Positions 2 to 9,166 of a stretch of DNA of 64,000 nucleotides are shown piece after piece. The stretch lies in the sequence record PV805638.1; one strand, 5' to 3'. Under the pieces are notes generated by a model. It was given only the letters and a program-made list of their open reading frames with translations. It was not told the DNA's origin and searched no databases. A program made the translations under genes and the position numbers. Position 1 is the stretch's first letter. Each line of letters opens with the position of its first letter. Source of the stretch: a phage.

Positions 2-427
2 CTGTTAACTGCCCGTGAATACCTGAAAGTAGATATCGCTAACAACTATGGCTTAGACAAGAAGACATGGGATGAGCGTATTAGCTGGTTCGATGAGAAT
101 GAAGCTAACCTGCTTAATCTGGTAGATGAAGCTGAAGAATCTGCATTGTTCTATGCTGGTGTAAACGCATGGAAAGATATGAAAGCCGGTAAGCCTATCG
201 GTTATGCTGTAGCTCTGGATGCTACATCATCCGGCTTACAGCTACTGGCTTGCCTGACTGGTGACCGTTCTGCTGCTGAACTGTGTAACGTAGTTAACTA
301 CATGGGGGAGAATGGTAAGCCATTACGTCGTGATGCTTATACAGTTATCTATCACAAGATGCTGGACATCCTTGGTGAAGCATCTCGTATTAAACGTAGT
401 GATACTAAGCAGGCCGTTAACCTATAA
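2..427 (+). CDS. T7-like single-subunit RNA polymerase (N4 RNAPII catalytic subunit), 5' part; partial, start lies upstream of window
   Basis: Open in frame from nt 2. Translation has motif A-like 'DATSSGLQ' (T7 'DGSCSGIQ') and ends 'RSDTKQAV' (T7 motif B 'RSVTKRSV'), followed by NL-stop at 425-427. Proposed exon end is U417. Confidence 0.6.
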   Translation: MLTAREYLKVDIANNYGLDKKTWDERISWFDENEANLLNLVDEAEESALFYAGVNAWKDMKAGKPIGYAVALDATSSGLQLLACLTGDRSAAELCNVVNYMGENGKPLRRDAYTVIYHKMLDILGEASRIKRSDTKQAVNL

Positions 428-1224
428 GTCATGGCGGCCTTTAAACCGGGTGAACTCATGGAACATCCCTAGTGGACAATCATGAGCCAAGTTGGTAACG
501 TAGAAAGCTCAATAAGGAGCATTCTATGTCAGAATTCAAAACGTGCAGTCGATGTAAAGAATTACTTCCTATCGAAGTATTCCCAGAGACTAAAAAAGCA
601 ATCACAGGACTCAAGACTAATTACGAGAATCGTTGCAGACCTTGCAAGGCTGCTGCTGCTCGTGAATGGCGTAAAAATAATCCCGGTTACACTGGAACTG
701 GGATTCTTAAGGCAATACCGGAAGAGCATCGTAAATGGTATTCAGCAGTCTCACTTAGACTGAGAGATGCAAAGAGCAGATGTAAAAAGCTCGGTAAGCC
801 TATGCCTGATTGCACAGTAGAGTACTTATTTGAAATCCTTAAATCACAGGAATTCAAATGTGCTTTAACTGGTGCAACCTTAGTAATTGAGTCGGGACAT
901 CCCTTGTGTCTATCATTAGACCAGATAGAGCCAAGCAAGGGATATAGTATTGATAATGTTCAATGGTTAGCTTGGTGTGTAAACCGAGCAAAGGGTGACC
1001 TTTCTACCAATGACTTTATTGATATGTGTGATGCTGTTTTGAATAACCAAAAGGTGCAGAGACTATCGAAAAGCAGCGTAAGCTGAACTTAGTAGAGTAG
1101 GCCCAAGTGGGTCGAAGCGCCCGGCTAGACTAATAGTCTAGATGATATAGTCCGAACTCACTGGTAACAGTGAGATGCAGGTAAAGCTGCTGGGGAAGAT
1201 TAACGACCTTCCTTGAACATAATG
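418..1224 (+). mobile_element. Putative group I intron carrying an HNH endonuclease ORF, inserted in RNAP motif B
   Basis: Exon 412-417 GGCCGU can pair with intron 434-439 GCGGCC, giving a U417-G434 wobble at the 5' splice site. Intron ends in G1224. The 3' region has 'GATATAGTCC' (1145-1154) and a GNRA hairpin ctcactg-gtaa-cagtgag (1157-1174). Joining 417 to 1225 restores '...KQAV-MTAFYGS'. Confidence 0.5.
526..1086 (+). CDS. HNH-family homing endonuclease-like protein (intron ORF)
   Basis: N-terminal CxxC...CxxC ('CSRCKEL', 'CRPCK') and C-terminal 'SLDQIEPSKGYSIDNVQWLAWCVNRAKG' resembling phage HNH nuclease cores. AAGGAG RBS at 515-520. Confidence 0.55.
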   Translation: MSEFKTCSRCKELLPIEVFPETKKAITGLKTNYENRCRPCKAAAAREWRKNNPGYTGTGILKAIPEEHRKWYSAVSLRLRDAKSRCKKLGKPMPDCTVEYLFEILKSQEFKCALTGATLVIESGHPLCLSLDQIEPSKGYSIDNVQWLAWCVNRAKGDLSTNDFIDMCDAVLNNQKVQRLSKSSVS

Positions 1225-1225
1225 T

Positions 1226-2020
1226 ATGACTGCATTCTATGGTTCAGAAGCCAAGCCTAAAGAAGTATTCGGTGAAGGTATTCGTCTCAAGACTTTTGAG
1301 AATGTAATGGAAACAGTTGCTAGTGGACCTTGGGCACTGAACAAGTTCTTACTGCAATGTGGTAACCCGGATGCTAGCCGTTACGTATGGGTACTGCCTG
1401 ACAATTTCCATGCTGTCATTAAGGTCATGGTTCCAGAGGTACAGACCGTTAACTTCTTAGGTAAGCCATTCGACATCACTCGTATGGTTCAGGGTACTGA
1501 AGATAAGACTCGTATGCTCTCTGCTAACATCACCCACTCTATTGATGGAATGGTGGTACGTGAGATGCTGCGTCGCTGTAACTTCGACATGAACCAGGTG
1601 AACTATATTAAGTCCCTCTGTGAAGGGACCAGTGAGTATATGCTGGGTACTAGCGAAAACTACGACATGGTTAGTCAACTGTGGCATAACTATGAGAAAT
1701 CAGGATTCCTGTCTACCCGTATCTTTGATTATCTGGATTCTGACTCAATTAAACTGGTTGATACAGATGTAATCATGGCTATGCTTAATACCATGCCTAA
1801 GAAACCATTCCCTGTAATGACCGTACATGACTGCTTCCGTTGTCATCCTAACTATGGCAATGACTTGCGTCGTCAGTACAATCAGATTCTGTCTGACATT
1901 GCTAAGAGTGACCTACTGGGCTTCATCCTGTCTCAGGTACTGGGGCAAGAGTTCTCTGCTGGTAAGCTGGATGACAGCCTCTGGCAGGACATCCTTGAAA
2001 CGGATTATGCATTAAGTTAA
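1226..2020 (+). CDS. T7-like RNA polymerase, 3' part (motif B 'YG' and motif C)
   Basis: Starts 'MTAFYGS' (T7 'MTLAYGS', motif B end) and contains 'VMTVHDCF' (T7 motif C 'HDSFG'). No Shine-Dalgarno upstream of 1226, consistent with being joined to the upstream exon. Confidence 0.6.
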   Translation: MTAFYGSEAKPKEVFGEGIRLKTFENVMETVASGPWALNKFLLQCGNPDASRYVWVLPDNFHAVIKVMVPEVQTVNFLGKPFDITRMVQGTEDKTRMLSANITHSIDGMVVREMLRRCNFDMNQVNYIKSLCEGTSEYMLGTSENYDMVSQLWHNYEKSGFLSTRIFDYLDSDSIKLVDTDVIMAMLNTMPKKPFPVMTVHDCFRCHPNYGNDLRRQYNQILSDIAKSDLLGFILSQVLGQEFSAGKLDDSLWQDILETDYALS

Positions 2021-3208: not shown

Positions 3209-3238
3209 GACCTCCCTATTAAAGGGAGGTCTTTTTTT
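3209..3238 (+). terminator. Rho-independent terminator
   Basis: 9-bp stem gacctccct/agggaggtc followed by T7. Confidence 0.65.
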
Positions 3239-3995: not shown

Positions 3996-5048
3996 ATGGC
4001 GAGCATTGACTCCTTGACTGTATGTAATACACGTCAAGCCCGTAACTTTATTATCCGTGCCTTGCAAGCAGGTAACGTACCGTTCCTGACTTCATCACCG
4101 GGTATGGGTAAGTCTGCAATTATTCGTTCTATTGCAGAAGAATTTGGTATGAAGCTGATTGACCATCGTTTGTCTACTTCTGCCCCGGAAGACTTATCTG
4201 GTCTACCATTCCGTAATGGTGACCGTGCAGAGTTTATCCCTTTCGCTGACTTATTCCCTATCGAGGGTGACGAAGTACCAGAAGGTTATAATGGCTGGCT
4301 CCTGTTCCTTGATGAGTTCAACTCAGCTAAAAAGGAAGTAGTAGCTGCTGCATACAAACTGATTCTAGACCGTATGACCGGACAGAAAAAACTTCACCCT
4401 AATGTGATGATTATCTGTGCCGGTAACAAAGCCACTGACCGAGCCATAGTTAACCCGCTGGGTACTGCAATGCAGTCCCGTGTTGTCCACTTCGAAATGG
4501 AACTCGACTTCGACATCTTTGTTGAAGACGTAATGATTCCTCAAGAATGGGATGAGCGTCTGGTTGCATTCTTACATGCTAACCCTGGTTATCTGCATGA
4601 CTTCGACCCTGCCCACAAGAACAAAACATTCTGTTGCCCTCGTACCTGGGACTTTGTTAACAAAGACCTCAAGAACCGACCAGAAGGTGCTTTGCCTGAT
4701 GAAGATTCTATCTACTATGCTGGACACGTTACTGCCGGTAAAGCTACAGAGTTTGTTCAGTTCACTCAGGTATACAATCGTATGATTACGATTGAGAAGG
4801 TAGTCAAAGACCCATTAGGCTGTGCACTACCGGAAGATAATAACCTGTGTTGGGCTACTGTTAACCATCTGGCTAACAAAACTACTGAAGATAACTTCGC
4901 TGATGTTCTTCAGTACATTGAACGCTTTAAAACGTTCACCCATAAGATTCTGTACTTCCGTACAGTAGGCAAAGCATTACCAGAAATTCAGGCTACCCCT
5001 GAATGGCGTAAGGCTGCTGCCAATATCTCTCGTTACATTCACGGATAA
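3996..5048 (+). CDS. MoxR-like AAA+ ATPase
   Basis: Walker A 'SPGMGKSAII' and Walker B 'LLFLDEFNSA'. Confidence 0.7.
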   Translation: MASIDSLTVCNTRQARNFIIRALQAGNVPFLTSSPGMGKSAIIRSIAEEFGMKLIDHRLSTSAPEDLSGLPFRNGDRAEFIPFADLFPIEGDEVPEGYNGWLLFLDEFNSAKKEVVAAAYKLILDRMTGQKKLHPNVMIICAGNKATDRAIVNPLGTAMQSRVVHFEMELDFDIFVEDVMIPQEWDERLVAFLHANPGYLHDFDPAHKNKTFCCPRTWDFVNKDLKNRPEGALPDEDSIYYAGHVTAGKATEFVQFTQVYNRMITIEKVVKDPLGCALPEDNNLCWATVNHLANKTTEDNFADVLQYIERFKTFTHKILYFRTVGKALPEIQATPEWRKAAANISRYIHG

Positions 5049-5055
5049 TCACAAC

Positions 5056-6231
5056 ATGAACCAGATACCTCAGCACACACTTAGTGATGAACAACTCATG
5101 CGTGAGTATGACCGTATTCAGGCCCAAGCCTTCCTAGGCAAGTCTGCTGCGTTTTTTGGTTCATTGCTGTGTAGTCTTAAGTTCTCATGGAAACGTGAGG
5201 GTTGTCCCACTGCATGTACCGATGGGATAGAACTCCATTTCAACCCTGACTTCTTTATCTGGATGTGCCCTGATGCAAGAGAAACAGTGCTAATGCACGA
5301 ACTCTGGCATGTGGCATATCTGCATGGCATCCGTTGTGGAAGCCGTGACCCGGAAGTCTGGAACCAGGCATGTGACCACTTCATTAACCTTCAGTTAGAA
5401 GAAGATGGTTACAAGTTCACTGGTATCGACGAAGGTATTTGCAAAGACCCTCAATATAAAGGATGGGTCGAAGAAGACATCTACGATGACCTGATGAAGA
5501 ACCCTCAGAAAAGGCAGAAGCCGTCGGGGGGAGCTGGAGCAAGTCTTGCTGGCGACATGAAAGCCCCCTCTTCGGGGCAGTCCCAGGGTGCTGTTGTCAA
5601 CAACGTAGTGCGTGCAATGCAAAGCCAGAAGATGGCTGGTGGAACAATGCCCGGTAAAGGTGCTGGTCGTATGGAAGAGGTTATTACCCAATTCCTTAAA
5701 CCAGTAGTTCCATGGCAGGAAGTTCTGATGAACTTCTTTACCGACATTGATGACACACATTATACGTGGGCCAGACCTAACCGTCGCTTCACTGACGTCT
5801 ATCTACCTTCTCTGGAAGATGATGAAGGACGCTTACGACACTTAGCCTACTTTGAGGATGTATCCGGTTCTATTAGTAGTGCTGACTCTCTGCGTTTTAA
5901 CTCAGAGGTTGCCTACGTTAAGAGCCAGTTCAATCCTAAGAAGATGACCCTAATTACCTTCGACGATATTATCCAAGAAGAAATAGACATCACTGAAGAA
6001 GATACTTTTGAAGAGATTAAGATTACTGGTCGTGGTGGTACAAACCTTGAACCAGTGCGCGAATGGATTATTAAGAATAAACCAACCGCTGCAATCATAT
6101 TCTCCGATATGTATGTTCGTCCAATGGAAGAATTACCATTTGATATCCCTATCATCTGGTGTGTTCTGAATAATCCTAATGCTACCGTACCTTTCGGGGA
6201 GGTAGTTCATATCCCTAAAGGAATGAAATAA
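5056..6231 (+). CDS. VWA-domain protein with N-terminal HExxH metallopeptidase-like motif
   Basis: 'HELWH' HExxH motif and a MIDAS-like 'DVSGSIS' (DxSxS); directly downstream of the AAA ATPase. Confidence 0.6.
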   Translation: MNQIPQHTLSDEQLMREYDRIQAQAFLGKSAAFFGSLLCSLKFSWKREGCPTACTDGIELHFNPDFFIWMCPDARETVLMHELWHVAYLHGIRCGSRDPEVWNQACDHFINLQLEEDGYKFTGIDEGICKDPQYKGWVEEDIYDDLMKNPQKRQKPSGGAGASLAGDMKAPSSGQSQGAVVNNVVRAMQSQKMAGGTMPGKGAGRMEEVITQFLKPVVPWQEVLMNFFTDIDDTHYTWARPNRRFTDVYLPSLEDDEGRLRHLAYFEDVSGSISSADSLRFNSEVAYVKSQFNPKKMTLITFDDIIQEEIDITEEDTFEEIKITGRGGTNLEPVREWIIKNKPTAAIIFSDMYVRPMEELPFDIPIIWCVLNNPNATVPFGEVVHIPKGMK

Positions 6232-6737
6232 TGATTGTTAATGGTAATTCTCTATACCGTTCATCTCAATTGCTGGATGTCCCAGACCGTAAAGTATCCG
6301 AGCATGGTGTAAGCTATGGATTAGGTGAAGCTGGTTATGATATTCGTATCAAACAAGACATTACCTTCTATCGCTTATTTGGATTGATTCCAATGGTGAA
6401 AATCGCTGATGGAAAACAAGTATCACGCCACTTCGGTAAGTTTGCATTGGCTTCAGCAATTGAGAAATTCAACATGTCCCCGTCCTGTGTAGCTATCGTT
6501 CACGATAAGTCCACATGGGCAAGACGTGCATTATCTGTGTTCAATACCGTAATAGAACCAGGATGGAAAGGGTATCTTACCCTCGAACTGGTCTATCATG
6601 GTCGTAAGAAACTGCATATCCCGGCTGGTGCTGGGATAGCTCAAGTATTATTTCATCTGGTTCAAGAGCCTGCTAACTACAATGGCAAGTATCAGAACCA
6701 GGAAAACAAACCAGTTGCTGCAAGAAGCAGCAAATAA
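6231..6737 (+). CDS. dCTP deaminase/dUTPase-fold protein
   Basis: 'GYDIRIK' and overall resemblance to the dCTP deaminase beta-barrel family; ATGA-type overlap with the upstream gene. Confidence 0.45.
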   Translation: MIVNGNSLYRSSQLLDVPDRKVSEHGVSYGLGEAGYDIRIKQDITFYRLFGLIPMVKIADGKQVSRHFGKFALASAIEKFNMSPSCVAIVHDKSTWARRALSVFNTVIEPGWKGYLTLELVYHGRKKLHIPAGAGIAQVLFHLVQEPANYNGKYQNQENKPVAARSSK

Positions 6738-6984: not shown

Positions 6985-7281
6985 GTGAAGAAACTATCTC
7001 AACCTCACATAGGAACCATCATGGAATCTTTAGCAGCAATCCTCGTTCTGTTATTTGCACTTGCTGTATACCTTATCCCTACTATTATTGCTTTTGCACG
7101 AGGCCATGCCTCTAAGTGGGGCATTGGTGTACTCAATATCGTATTAGGCTGGTCTTTAGTCTTCTGGGTAGTAGCACTGATTTGGTCACTGTCTAATAAA
7201 GAACAGTCTCAGACTACAATCGTTAACGTTGGTAGTGGTAACCAGTACAACGTGTCTCAAACGAGCCTGTCTGATAAGTAA
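6985..7281 (+). CDS. Membrane protein (two TM helices)
   Basis: Two long hydrophobic segments. Confidence 0.35.
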   Translation: MKKLSQPHIGTIMESLAAILVLLFALAVYLIPTIIAFARGHASKWGIGVLNIVLGWSLVFWVVALIWSLSNKEQSQTTIVNVGSGNQYNVSQTSLSDK

Positions 7282-7357
7282 CTAACCTAAGCATCATTGT
7301 ATAGTGGTGCTTGTGGAAGTTACTTCCAGCTCATTACTTATCCATCTCCTAATCCAA

Positions 7358-7383
7358 GCCCACCTAACCCGTGGGCTTTTTTA
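7358..7383 (+). terminator. Rho-independent terminator
   Basis: agcccac-ctaaccc-gtgggct hairpin followed by tttttt. Confidence 0.55.
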
Positions 7384-7398
7384 ATTACAGGTACTCTT

Positions 7399-7779
7399 AT
7401 GTCAAACAGACAAAATGGTAAGTCTATCTTATATGGACTGGACTTAAGTAAACTGGAACAAACTGCAATGCTTACTTTAGGTATACATGACCAAGTAGAA
7501 GTGAATGGAATTGGTCCTGATGTTTGTGCAGCAATGCAAGCTGCTATTCAGAAAGGATGGACTAGTAGATCATTTAATGTTTTCCCATACATCCCTCCTG
7601 AACCTCATCTGAAATCTAAGGTAGACAGAATCATAGATAAGTTCTGGCTTAGCCCATGCGGGGATGACATGCATCTTTACCTGGCTCAAATACAAAAGAA
7701 TCCGCGTACTAAAGATGTGTTCAAAGGCAAAAGCACTACCCACCATTACCCTTGGTATAGAAGAGGTAGTAAATACTAA
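7399..7779 (+). CDS. Hypothetical protein
   Basis: The ORF-track start at 7297 lies inside the terminator; the in-frame ATG at 7399 just after it is the more plausible start. Confidence 0.35.
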   Translation: MSNRQNGKSILYGLDLSKLEQTAMLTLGIHDQVEVNGIGPDVCAAMQAAIQKGWTSRSFNVFPYIPPEPHLKSKVDRIIDKFWLSPCGDDMHLYLAQIQKNPRTKDVFKGKSTTHHYPWYRRGSKY

Positions 7780-8222
7780 TGCGTATCCCATTCCTAAGAA
7801 AAAGGGAACGAAATCCTGTTCTTTATAATAAAGGTATAGAGGATGAGTACGAACTCAACCGTAAAGCCCGTTCCTACGCAACAAAATTATTCATGGGGAC
7901 TAGCAACCCTAATAGATTACTGGACTTTGTTTTCGAACAAGTCTTTATCATATACAGCTTAGCTATGTCTGCTGGTTCACAAGAAGTAAGTGATAAGGCA
8001 AGATATGCTCTCTGTATGCTCCGGAAAGAGTATGAAGCCATCATGTATGAAGACTTGTACTCCTTTAAGAAAGAAACCGCTGTAGCGTGTTCTGTGGCTC
8101 TTACTGAAGGTATAGCAGTATTACAAGAACTACCCCGTAGTGAGTTTAAGCTGGTATATGTCCAGGCCAGGAGAATTACAGAAAACCGAAGTGGTATTAC
8201 CAACTATCTAAGGTCATTCTAA
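7779..8222 (+). CDS. Hypothetical protein
   Basis: 147-aa ORF, start overlaps the previous stop. Confidence 0.35.
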   Translation: MRIPFLRKRERNPVLYNKGIEDEYELNRKARSYATKLFMGTSNPNRLLDFVFEQVFIIYSLAMSAGSQEVSDKARYALCMLRKEYEAIMYEDLYSFKKETAVACSVALTEGIAVLQELPRSEFKLVYVQARRITENRSGITNYLRSF

Positions 8223-9166
8223 TGATTAAGGCAACTGTCATTGCAGATTCCGTTCATCATGTAACGGGTACTCGTATTACTACCTTTGAATTGGTTTATC
8301 CTCGATTCATTCACAGTGAGTTTATGACCCACCGTGTATTCAACCGAAATGCTTCAAGTAGTCGTGCTATCCCTACTTCTAAGTTTATTGAACAGGTTCG
8401 TAATGAACCAGTGATGCCAAGTCACTGGGGCAAGAACCAGAAAGGTATGCAGGCATTTGAAGAATTGTCTGAAGACCAACGTAGTGATGCAACCTTTATC
8501 TGGGAACAGGCTGCATCCAGTGCTGCTACCTATGCAGAAATGCTTCGTCGTGGACAAGTACATAAGCAGATTGTTAACCGTATTCTGGAACCATTCACAC
8601 ATATTCGTGTAGTGGTAACTTCAACTAGCTGGGCTAACTTCTATGGATTGCGTGACCATGAAGATGCTCAACCAGAGATTCGTGAATTAGCTCAAGCAAT
8701 GCGTAAGGCTCATAATGAAAGTGTTCCATCTAAGCTGTCCCAAGGTGTGTGGCATCTGCCTTATATTCGCAAGATTGATTGTATTAACGCTTACGATCAT
8801 TGCAAATATCAACGAGTTACTTGTGATAAACCAAGTGATGAAGAAGTTATAGGCTTACTGCTTAAAGTCTCTGCTGCTCGTTGTGCTCGTGCCTCCTATA
8901 ACAACTTTGAAGGCAAGCCATCTACTATTAGTGATGACCTTGCTCTCTTTGCTAAGTTGGTAGAGAAACAACCAATTCATGCATCACCTACTGAGCATCA
9001 AGCTACCCCGATGGACTTCAGTACCAAGTTTGTTAACAACCAGAACCCATTAACCTGGGAACAGGGTGTTACTTCAATGGACCGTGAAGGTAAGCTGTAT
9101 TCTGGTAACCTGTTAGATTTCATCCAATTCCGTAAACTAATCCCCGGAGAAACAATTACAGAATGA
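8222..9166 (+). CDS. thyX: ThyX-like FAD-dependent thymidylate synthase
   Basis: 'THRVFNRNASSSRA' resembles the ThyX RHRx7S signature; start overlaps the upstream stop. Confidence 0.45.
   Translation: MIKATVIADSVHHVTGTRITTFELVYPRFIHSEFMTHRVFNRNASSSRAIPTSKFIEQVRNEPVMPSHWGKNQKGMQAFEELSEDQRSDATFIWEQAASSAATYAEMLRRGQVHKQIVNRILEPFTHIRVVVTSTSWANFYGLRDHEDAQPEIRELAQAMRKAHNESVPSKLSQGVWHLPYIRKIDCINAYDHCKYQRVTCDKPSDEEVIGLLLKVSAARCARASYNNFEGKPSTISDDLALFAKLVEKQPIHASPTEHQATPMDFSTKFVNNQNPLTWEQGVTSMDREGKLYSGNLLDFIQFRKLIPGETITE

Follow-up and report, generated by a model that had tools for sequence, protein, structure and literature searches.

Introduction

Several described systems pair a MoxR-type AAA+ ATPase with a von Willebrand factor A (VWA) protein (PMC7159879, PMC7824862). 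In NorQ–NorD, CbbQ–CbbO, RavA–ViaA, CoxD–CoxE and the pair of Acidianus two-tailed virus (ATV), a separate gene of AAA_5 or AAA_3 type lies beside a gene whose product has a VWA domain with a metal ion-dependent adhesion site (MIDAS), and these pairs act by chaperone-like remodeling. A similar arrangement is present in a 64,000-nucleotide stretch of phage DNA, sequence record PV805638.1, which is called the window throughout. Positions 3996–6737 of the window hold homologs of genes gp24, gp25 and gp26 of N4-like coliphages, encoding in that order an AAA+ ATPase, a protein that joins a zincin-like domain to a VWA/MIDAS domain, and a dCTP deaminase-like protein. Unlike gp25, the VWA partners of the bacterial and ATV pairs are without a zincin domain. 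We consider it moderately probable that gp24 and gp25 are two subunits of one ATP-driven, MIDAS-guided machine for remodeling and cleaving proteins.

Three other groups of proteins bear on this pair. In midasin (Rea1/Mdn1), an AAA ring works with a MIDAS domain that grips an acidic residue of the substrate and pulls it off its complex, a principle described in PMC7159879. Midasin differs from gp24 and gp25 in being a single chain of ~4,700–4,900 residues with six fused AAA modules and no peptidase, and it is a eukaryotic protein of ribosome biogenesis. The ternary systems of Kaur et al. 2020 combine MoxR and vWA proteins with a large third component, sometimes with a peptidase fused to the vWA domain, in conflict-type neighborhoods (PMC7159879). 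The phage pair is unlike these systems in that no third component is found among the open reading frames (ORFs) of the window. By analogy, the coupling of an AAA+ unfoldase to an HExxH peptidase would follow the same logic in FtsH, where AAA and M41 domains share one chain, and in Wss1 or SPRTN acting with Cdc48/p97. No relation of gp24 or gp25 to FtsH, Wss1 or SPRTN was found at the sequence level, and the coupling here would differ in running through VWA/MIDAS and two polypeptides. Neither a membrane anchor nor a DNA-binding domain was detected in gp24 or gp25.

The nearest described phage system is that of Iyer et al. 2021, who reported a MoxR ATPase with a vWA protein carrying an N-terminal metallopeptidase in group 2.2 jumbo phages. 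Taking the ATV tail-assembly pair as their model, they suggested that these proteins help to build virions, with proteolytic processing as part of the task (PMC7824862). The jumbo-phage pair and gp24/gp25 are homologous, share the same two-gene architecture and keep both HExxH and MIDAS. The jumbo-phage proteins are longer (424 and 461 residues) and contain inserts, and the phages that carry them are myoviruses.

In N4-like phages, gp24 and gp25 are two of the 14 core genes and belong to the middle genes (PMC4193335). They are also signature genes in the Schitoviridae proposal (PMC7650795). Neither gp24 nor gp25 is among the N4 homologs listed for the roseophage virion proteins found by mass spectrometry (PMC4193335, Table 4). 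The pair is already recognized, having been listed as a core pair since 2009–2014 and its architecture having been described in 2021. New here are its presence in more than 700 phage genomes of several families, its three-gene context in cellular genomes and the correction of the HNH label borne by gp25 orthologs. Large virulent phages carry the pair by the hundred, and some of them are candidates for therapy against E. coli, Pseudomonas, Klebsiella and Achromobacter. To learn its target would close one of the few gaps left in the N4 infection program.

Results

Organization of the gp24–gp25 locus

The window comes from a G7C-like, N4-like coliphage (Gamaleyavirus, Schitoviridae). All features given below by position lie on the + strand, and positions are those of the window unless stated otherwise. 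The gp24 homolog occupies 3996–5048 (350 residues), the gp25 homolog 5056–6231 (391 residues) and the gp26 homolog 6231–6737 (168 residues), exactly where an initial annotation made from the sequence alone had placed them. A strong Shine-Dalgarno sequence precedes the gp24 start, 7 nucleotides separate the gp24 stop from the gp25 ATG, and the TAA of gp25 overlaps the ATG of gp26. This packing resembles that of a single translational unit.

The initial annotation had also described the pair as syntenic in N4-like phages. Segment 3996–6737 is matched over at least 80% of its length by 59 phage records, at 80–99% nucleotide identity, and nucleotide identity to Gamaleyavirus genomes is 92–97%. The encoded proteins are 95–99% identical to known copies. 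G7C names the three genes gp24, gp25 and gp26 and annotates them as ATPase, VWA-like domain-containing protein and dCTP deaminase, respectively. G7C and N4 have orthologs of all three genes in the same order, and the only difference is an additional HNH gene, gp24.1, between gp24 and gp25 in G7C. The position of the pair is constant, with the RNA polymerase II genes on one side and the replication genes on the other.

gp24 is a midasin-related AAA+ ATPase with its own C-terminal domain

The gp24 protein shares 99.4% identity with its G7C ortholog and 62% with that of N4, and it matches phrog_1297 'ATPase' at 3e-134. Against Pfam it passes the AAA model (28.5 bits, cut-off 21.2, E 2.4e-6). It falls short of AAA_5 (18.2 bits, cut-off 22, E 0.0027) and bpMoxR (13.7 bits, cut-off 27), and AAA_3 gave no match. 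NCBIfam returned nothing for gp24 or gp25, and PADLOC 2.0 gave only weak, P-loop-level matches to gp24 (DolB, 0.0022). Within the wider gp24 family, AAA_5 was matched at E < 0.01 by 10 of 15 members, and cellular members pass its cut-off, with 23.8 and 27.9 bits.

Conservation was assessed in an alignment of 29 Schitoviridae homologs (~50% identity) and in a wider set (23–30% identity) that adds members from RaK2, Paride, Litunavirus, roseophages, a Vibrio phage, bacteria and archaea. The Walker A motif SSPGMGKS (residues 33–40; 4092–4115) has P35, G38, K39 and S40 invariant in both. The most conserved stretch of the protein, DHRLSTSAPEDLSGLP (residues 56–71; 4161–4208), lies between Walker A and Walker B and follows the pattern DHRLSTSxPEDxxGLP. 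Among the 29 homologs D56, H57, R58, L59, S60, T61, S62, P64, D66, G69, L70 and P71 are invariant, and D56, R58, L59, G69 and P71 stay so when jumbo-phage and bacterial members are added. By its placement, this block would occupy the helix-2 insert site of MoxR/dynein-clade ATPases. In the Walker B motif LLFLDEF (residues 102–108; 4299–4319), L105, D106 and E107 are invariant. The segment 4416–4481 encodes a sensor-1-like N144 (in CAGN) and an arginine-finger-like R162 (in MQSR); A142, G143, N144 and R162 are invariant in both alignments, and the position of N144 and R162 suggests that they serve as sensor-1 and arginine finger. Walker A, Walker B (LDE, residues 105–107) and these two elements are all intact in gp24.

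Beyond the ATPase core lies a family-specific C-terminal domain with the motif FCCPRTW (residues 212–218; 4629–4649). T211, F212, C213, R216, T217 and W218 are invariant in Schitoviridae, and R216 and W218 are invariant as far as the bacterial members of the gp24 family. The homology to bacterial ATPases found with hhalign includes this domain. On these alignments gp24 forms a separate subfamily, recognizable by the FCCPRTW of this domain.

Searched against the Protein Data Bank (PDB), the wider gp24 profile matched the AAA modules of midasin best, at 5.5e-14 to 1.8e-12. All other AAA proteins in the PDB scored 1.8e-5 or worse, mostly over the P-loop only, and chains of bacterial MoxR, RavA, CbbQ and NorQ were not among the best 60 matches. 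We place gp24 in the dynein/midasin/MoxR group because midasin is its best solved relative and because family members match AAA_5. The earlier description of gp24 as a MoxR-like AAA ATPase holds in this broad sense of the AAA_5 group; in the narrow sense it does not, since midasin, and not a bacterial MoxR, is the closest protein of solved structure and gp24 on its own stays below the AAA_5 cut-off.

gp25 combines a zincin-like domain with a complete MIDAS

Residues 17–253 of gp25 match DUF2201_N 'putative metallopeptidase' (8e-55; 186.8 bits, cut-off 23.2) and residues 263–386 match DUF2201 'VWA-like' (1.8e-34; 119 bits, cut-off 26.4). The two Pfam models stand in the order seen in the COG3864-type 'predicted metal-dependent peptidase'. 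As for gp24, we compared 29 Schitoviridae homologs at ~50% identity with a wider set, here of jumbo-phage and bacterial proteins and one from an archaeal metagenome-assembled genome (MAG), at 23–30% identity.

The segment HELWHVAYLH (residues 81–90; 5296–5325) contains an HExxH motif, HELWH (residues 81–85; 5296–5310), and a conserved histidine five residues further on. H81, E82, W84 and H85 are invariant among the 29 homologs and H90 is at least 90% conserved. Given the length and composition of gp25, ~0.02 HExxH motifs would be expected by chance. In the structural model the N-terminal domain has a zincin fold, with HExxH on helix 72–87. D107, in the ACD segment (residues 105–107; 5368–5376), is positioned on the following helix and is also invariant. 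H90 and D107 are both candidates for the third zinc ligand, and D107 might instead serve as an additional one.

The C-terminal domain has a Rossmann-like VWA fold. Its MIDAS is complete, with DxSxS followed by a threonine and then an aspartate. DVSGS (residues 268–272; 5857–5871) supplies the invariant D268, S270, G271 and S272 and aligns with the MIDAS of the integrin alpha-X I-domain. T329 (in GRGGT) and D351 (in FSDM) are encoded within 6028–6111, where G327, G328, T329 and D351 are invariant. The full set of ligand positions is thus D268, S270, S272, T329 and D351. In the wider set H81, H85, D107, S272 and D351 remain invariant, the other ligand and catalytic residues, E82 included, are at least 90% conserved, and so are G327, G328 and T329. 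The alignments indicate purifying selection on every catalytic and ligand residue of gp24 and gp25, from Schitoviridae to the archaeal MAG. The motifs that the initial annotation had read in gp25, the HExxH of 'HELWH' and a MIDAS-like DxSxS, are thereby both upheld by conservation and fold, and the profile search that was to check the family assignment places the protein in Pfam DUF2201 'VWA-like'.

Between the two domains is a linker of the form W-x-RPNRR-x5-YLPS (residues 238–252; 5767–5811). W238, R243, R244, Y249, L250 and P251 are invariant among the 29 homologs. As far as the bacterial members, P241, R243, R244 and P251 keep a conservation of at least 90%, and across this range the linker reads W-x-RPNRR-x5-YLP(S/G). 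Residues 231–256 are predicted to be disordered, with a predicted local distance difference test (pLDDT) score below 50 in the model. The linker might serve to dock the ATPase, or be a site of processing.

Many RefSeq and PHROG-derived annotations name gp25 an HNH homing endonuclease, a reading to which we give virtually no chance. The label is widespread: phrog_1314, which gp25 matches at 1.3e-144, is called 'HNH endonuclease', and many records of gp25 orthologs repeat the name. According to a note in the RaK2 record, it goes back to a 'putative HNH endonuclease' call in a roseophage ORF. However, a Pfam scan of gp25 found no HNH family at E up to 0.1, and both domains of the protein are accounted for, by profile and by fold, as zincin and VWA. 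The true HNH genes of such phages are separate ORFs, as in G7C gp24.1 and the window ORF at 526–1086. The HNH identity of gp25 is refuted on these grounds, and the label on its orthologs is wrong and needs correcting.

The pair is widespread and linked in large virulent phages

Homologs of gp25 were found in 733 phage records and homologs of gp24 in 798, with near-identical genus profiles. Phages that infect Escherichia, Pseudomonas, Vibrio, Rhizobium, Achromobacter and roseobacters keep the pair at ~50% identity. Carriers outside Schitoviridae include RaK2/PBECO4-type jumbo phages, PA5oct/Paride-type, rV5-like and PVP-SE1-like phages, Aeromonas and Campylobacter phages, the cyanophages S-TIM5 and S-TIM66, and Bacillus phage PBS1. 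In RaK2 the gp24-like protein matches at 2e-28, and the gp25-like protein is 24.6% identical over 93% of the query. When 1.84 billion cluster representatives were screened with a profile, 21,673 clusters matched at an E-value limit of 1e-3, roughly 15,000 at 1e-10 and 5,369 at 1e-30.

In Enquatrovirinae, Litunavirus, Rhodovirinae, a Vibrio schitovirus and RaK2, gp24 comes ahead of gp25. No other gene separates the two in RaK2, PBECO4 and WPEC3, and in Paride they lie near each other. Two neighboring ORFs were considered and rejected as members of the pair. Directly upstream of the gp25 homolog of rV5-like phages is an ORF annotated as an 'anti-sigma factor', which is not a gp24 homolog; the ATPase gene is a few kb off. 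Paride_0138, a 'homing endonuclease' beside the Paride gp25 homolog, was shown by alignment not to be a second gp25 copy.

Cellular relatives form a three-gene operon

Six cellular loci have a zincin-VWA gene directly behind the gene for a full-length gp24-family ATPase. They are in a Wenzhouxiangella MAG (L010), a Xanthomonadales MAG (L019), Natronospira (L018), Methylonatrum (L024), Sphaerotilus (L023) and an archaeal MAG (L012). The two genes overlap by 4 nucleotides in L018, L019, L023 and L024. The ATPase was identified by Pfam AAA and AAA_5 in L010 and L012, by hhalign in L019 and L023 (probability 99.8–100%), by BLASTP in L018 (2e-30) and by a faint precomputed Pfam AAA match in L024. 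A seventh place, on a 263-kb metagenome contig (L025), also has a gp24-family ATPase just upstream. Another locus, L017, is a disrupted cellular copy. In P. mendocina, the ORF after the zincin-VWA gene was considered as the ATPase and rejected; an IS21 element occupies the ATPase slot.

At the five bacterial loci among the six, a gene of 470–625 codons precedes the ATPase gene. Its products are homologous among the bacterial loci tested pairwise. They gave no Pfam match, and their only match outside the group is a weak one of leucine-rich repeat (LRR)-like type. The archaeal locus has a 548-residue gene in the same slot, with no significant pairwise similarity to the bacterial ones. We claim no conserved fourth gene, because the genes flanking the pair in L010 and L012 have no detectable similarity to each other; DUF7663 is found in two loci only.

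The neighbors of the cellular genes include WYL/WCX regulators, toxin-antitoxin genes (HigB, ParE, Gp49), an integrase, IS21 and SIR2, together with an LmuB-like SMC protein, an ADP-ribosylglycohydrolase and a DEAD/MZB helicase. Read from these neighbors at about seven loci, the context looks like that of a defense island. The cellular relatives are like the ternary systems of Kaur et al. in having a third, upstream gene, conserved among the bacterial loci, and defense-like neighbors. They differ in that the VMAP, FtsH and beta-propeller third components were not found; the window's gp24, for its part, misses the bpMoxR cut-off. The operon of LRR-like protein, gp24-family ATPase and zincin-VWA protein may be an undescribed conflict system. 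If it is a defense system, it would be a new class of MoxR-vWA conflict system with a counterpart in phages.

A proposed split remodeling and cleavage machine and its alternatives

The domain identities, the conserved motifs, the gene linkage and the co-occurrence of the two genes described above are the observations from which we propose how the pair might work. gp24 presumably assembles into an AAA+ ring, with gp25 as its adaptor-effector. The metal ion held by the MIDAS of the VWA domain would grip an acidic residue, either on the substrate or on the ATPase ring, in a manner modeled on midasin, NorQ–NorD and CbbQ–CbbO. The zincin domain, using HExxH with H90 and/or D107, would then cleave the protein that the ATPase has remodeled, and the outcome would be a split ATP-dependent metalloprotease or remodeler. 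The pair would be made from the middle-gene block, between the genes for RNA polymerase II and DNA replication, and would not be a virion component. Gene linkage and analogy point to a physical interaction of gp24 with gp25, and we infer the peptidase activity and the order of events. Because the pair is core in all Schitoviridae and recurs in several other families of large virulent phages, its substrate should be something that very different hosts have in common or that the phages themselves share.

Several observations weigh against this two-subunit machine. On its own, gp24 stays below the AAA_5 and bpMoxR cut-offs. By sequence, neither gp25 nor its profile found a relative in the PDB beyond the marginal match to the integrin MIDAS. 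In rV5-like and PVP-SE1-like phages the two genes are not adjacent, lying a few kb apart on opposite strands. It could also be that the AAA+ ring acts alone, with gp25 as its substrate rather than its partner. The literature search found no paper that characterizes the function of any member of the gp24 or gp25 family, in keeping with the initial annotation, whose author was aware of no characterized phage function or target. Searches for DUF2201, COG3864, PF13203, PF09967 and DUF7663 yielded nothing relevant, and those for the VWA protein or ATPase of N4-like phages or Schitoviridae yielded nothing on function. A CRISPRi-ART paper and a phage transposon-mutagenesis preprint hold no data on N4 gp24 or gp25; the 'gp25' of the CRISPRi-ART paper is that of phage PTXU04.

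The alternatives mostly concern what the pair would act on, and we weigh a structural or assembly substrate and a host or nucleoprotein substrate about equally. A virion-assembly chaperone and maturation protease, which would fold, assemble or trim a structural protein without staying in the particle, amounts to the machine model with one particular kind of substrate, and we regard it as possible but doubtful. It agrees with the assembly role proposed for the pair in jumbo phages of group 2.2 (PMC7824862) and with the ATV precedent, a MoxR-vWA pair needed for tail development and cited in both PMC7824862 and PMC7159879. The pair is core, as are the capsid, portal and terminase genes. G7C gp17, a 'Hoc-like head decoration' protein similar to the N4 32 kDa virion protein, is encoded just upstream in the same early-to-middle region, and roseophages have a 'second structural module' near the gp24 and gp25 homologs (PMC4193335). 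However, the pair always lies between the RNA polymerase II and replication genes, away from the late structural genes, which are on the opposite strand, and its carriers have unrelated tails and capsid sizes, being podoviruses of ~70 kb and myoviruses of 115–145 kb and 290–385 kb. Close cellular homologs of both genes also occur in islands without virion genes, and the module therefore needs no virion substrate. A host-takeover or conflict module would instead remodel or destroy a conserved host protein or a component of host defense; here, the pair would be a sensor-less phage version of the cellular system of LRR-like protein, MoxR-type ATPase and zincin-VWA protein. This too we hold to be possible and rather unlikely. 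The cellular operon is conserved, with a homologous upstream gene at five bacterial loci, and has defense-type neighbors such as WYL/WCX, toxin-antitoxin, SIR2 and LmuB-like SMC genes. MoxR-vWA conflict systems with peptidase effectors have been described (PMC7159879), and the phage pair is expressed in the middle phase (PMC4193335). Yet counter-defense genes are usually variable accessories, whereas this pair is core at ~50% identity. No PADLOC 2.0 model was matched by gp25, gp26 or the cellular homologs, the weak P-loop-level similarities of gp24 fall short of a match, and the bpMoxR score of gp24 is 13.7 bits against 27. Moreover, the 'defense island' is a reading of the neighbors in the roughly seven cellular contexts inspected.

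Less likely than either of these is a non-proteolytic role in inserting metal or activating an enzyme, which we judge improbable. The pair would then be an activase or metal-insertion chaperone that matures a metalloenzyme or an enzyme of nucleotide metabolism of the phage, with HExxH as a metal-handling site, on the model of NorQ–NorD, CbbQ–CbbO, CoxD–CoxE and the CobS–CobT and BchI–BchD chelatases. gp24 weakly matches phrog_249 'porphyrin biosynthesis' (E 0.001), and gp25 is matched by fold by ChlH, whose HExxH is not that of a peptidase. Genes for dCTP deaminase and thymidylate synthase ThyX are neighbors here, and RaK2 has a thymidylate synthase gene ~2 kb downstream. However, the nucleotide-metabolism neighbors are not conserved, and the cellular homologs have no metalloenzyme gene as a consistent neighbor. 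E82, the general base of zincins, is kept (invariant in Schitoviridae, at least 90% conserved more widely), which pure metal handling would not require. In a further reading, the pair would be the sensor-less phage form of the three-gene conflict system (LRR-like protein, midasin/MoxR ATPase and zincin-VWA protein, often near WYL). In the phage it would be an ATP-dependent protease, essential to infection, whose task is to clear away a universally conserved protein, of the host or phage-bound, during the switch from early transcription to replication. By analogy this removal might be likened to that by Wss1 or SPRTN with Cdc48/p97. We think this combination unlikely as a whole.

gp26 and other neighboring genes

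gp26 belongs to the dCTP deaminase family and the trimeric dUTPase fold. It matches Pfam DCD (PF22769) at 1.7e-16 (61.1 bits, cut-off 27), phrog_1663 'dCTP deaminase' at 3.4e-59 and the PDB dCTP deaminases 4dhk and 3km3 at 1.6e-11 and 1.3e-10. Its TIGR02274 score, 79.2 bits, is short of the equivalog cut-off of 92.8, which supports family membership and does not certify functional orthology. KSTWAR (residues 93–98) and LTLEL (residues 116–120) align with kStyaR and vTLEf of 4dhk. The roles of these residues, a Ser/Arg segment and the catalytic Glu of the TLE motif, we take to be those of E. coli Dcd. As a dCTP deaminase, gp26 would feed dUTP/dUMP towards the phage ThyX, and the two enzymes would give a route from dCTP through dUTP and dUMP to dTMP. 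The window has at 8222–9166 a gene for FAD-dependent thymidylate synthase ThyX, matching the annotation of G7C gp30.

The identity of this dCTP deaminase-like gene is as first annotated, and its place after the pair is confined to some lineages of Schitoviridae. Litunavirus has a helicase gene behind gp25; in the Vibrio schitovirus the next gene encodes a hypothetical protein and is followed by DNA polymerase, and in Rhodovirinae it encodes a hypothetical protein and is followed by dCMP deaminase. A functional tie between the deaminase and the pair was considered and dropped, because the downstream neighbor of gp25 varies between subfamilies. For the same reason we regard gp26 as a bystander and not as part of the module.

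A hairpin search located two terminator-like hairpins on either side of the block that contains gp24, gp25 and gp26. One, at 3209–3231, lies upstream, and G7C has a stem-loop annotated at the equivalent place. The other, at 7356–7378, closes the block. Downstream of gp26 is a gene for an Imm-like superinfection-immunity membrane protein (6985–7281), which matches the annotation of G7C gp27.1.

Middle-gene blocks of N4-like type were also seen on two bacterial contigs. A 153-kb contig of a Mesorhizobium sp. MAG (L026) holds gp24, gp25, dCMP deaminase, ThyX, helicase and family A DNA polymerase genes, and a LysR regulator and other ordinary bacterial genes start ~1.5 kb upstream of its gp24. A 727-kb contig of Mesorhizobium yinganensis (L004) holds gp24, gp25 and a dCTP deaminase-like gene. 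These blocks could be integrated or remnant N4-like elements, or chimeras of assembly. Their occurrence on bacterial contigs is unexpected for a family regarded as strictly lytic.

Mobile insertions at the pair and in the RNA polymerase II gene

The gp24–gp25 region is a hot spot for mobile insertions. In G7C the HNH gene gp24.1 (7057–7533 of the G7C sequence, L001) is inserted between gp24 and gp25; in the window this interval comprises only 5049–5055 and the gene is absent. The entries bearing on this (P0142, P0145, P0213; P0364, P0367) include truncated gp24 variants of 224–268 residues at 95–98% identity and some gp25 relatives, of 519–701 residues, that align in two stretches, as though interrupted.

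A further insert is present at the left end of the window. The homolog of N4 gp16, the large subunit of RNA polymerase II (the middle polymerase), is split by 807 nucleotides at 418–1224, as defined by comparison with the uninterrupted G7C gene. The exons run up to 417 and from 1225 to 2020, and the insert contains the HNH ORF at 526–1086. The split falls within '...TKQAV|MTAFYG', a VMTxxYG segment that resembles motif B of T7 RNA polymerase. The last base of exon 1 is T (U) and that of the insert is G, which is the splice-site rule of group I introns. The Rfam model Intron_gpI matches 835–1174 (30.2 bits, E 1.3e-5, gathering score 50), and this match takes in the core GAUAUAGUCC. Judged from these sequence features, the insert is probably a mobile group I intron with an HNH homing endonuclease.

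When window positions 300–1350 were compared with the phage collection, no record covered more than 36% of the query. For the close coliphage records shown, the match is confined to the flanking exon sequence (23% of the query), and the insert is absent from all related coliphage records. The only similar insert is that of the Achromobacter phages JWAlpha and JWDelta, at 75% identity over query positions 599–980 (window ~898–1279). In these phages it lies under features annotated 'endonuclease' and 'RNA polymerase', that is, in an interrupted RNA polymerase II region. Chan et al. 2014 had doubted the function of RNA polymerase II in JWAlpha and JWDelta (PMC4193335). The shared insert suggests that the intron has moved between distant Schitoviridae.

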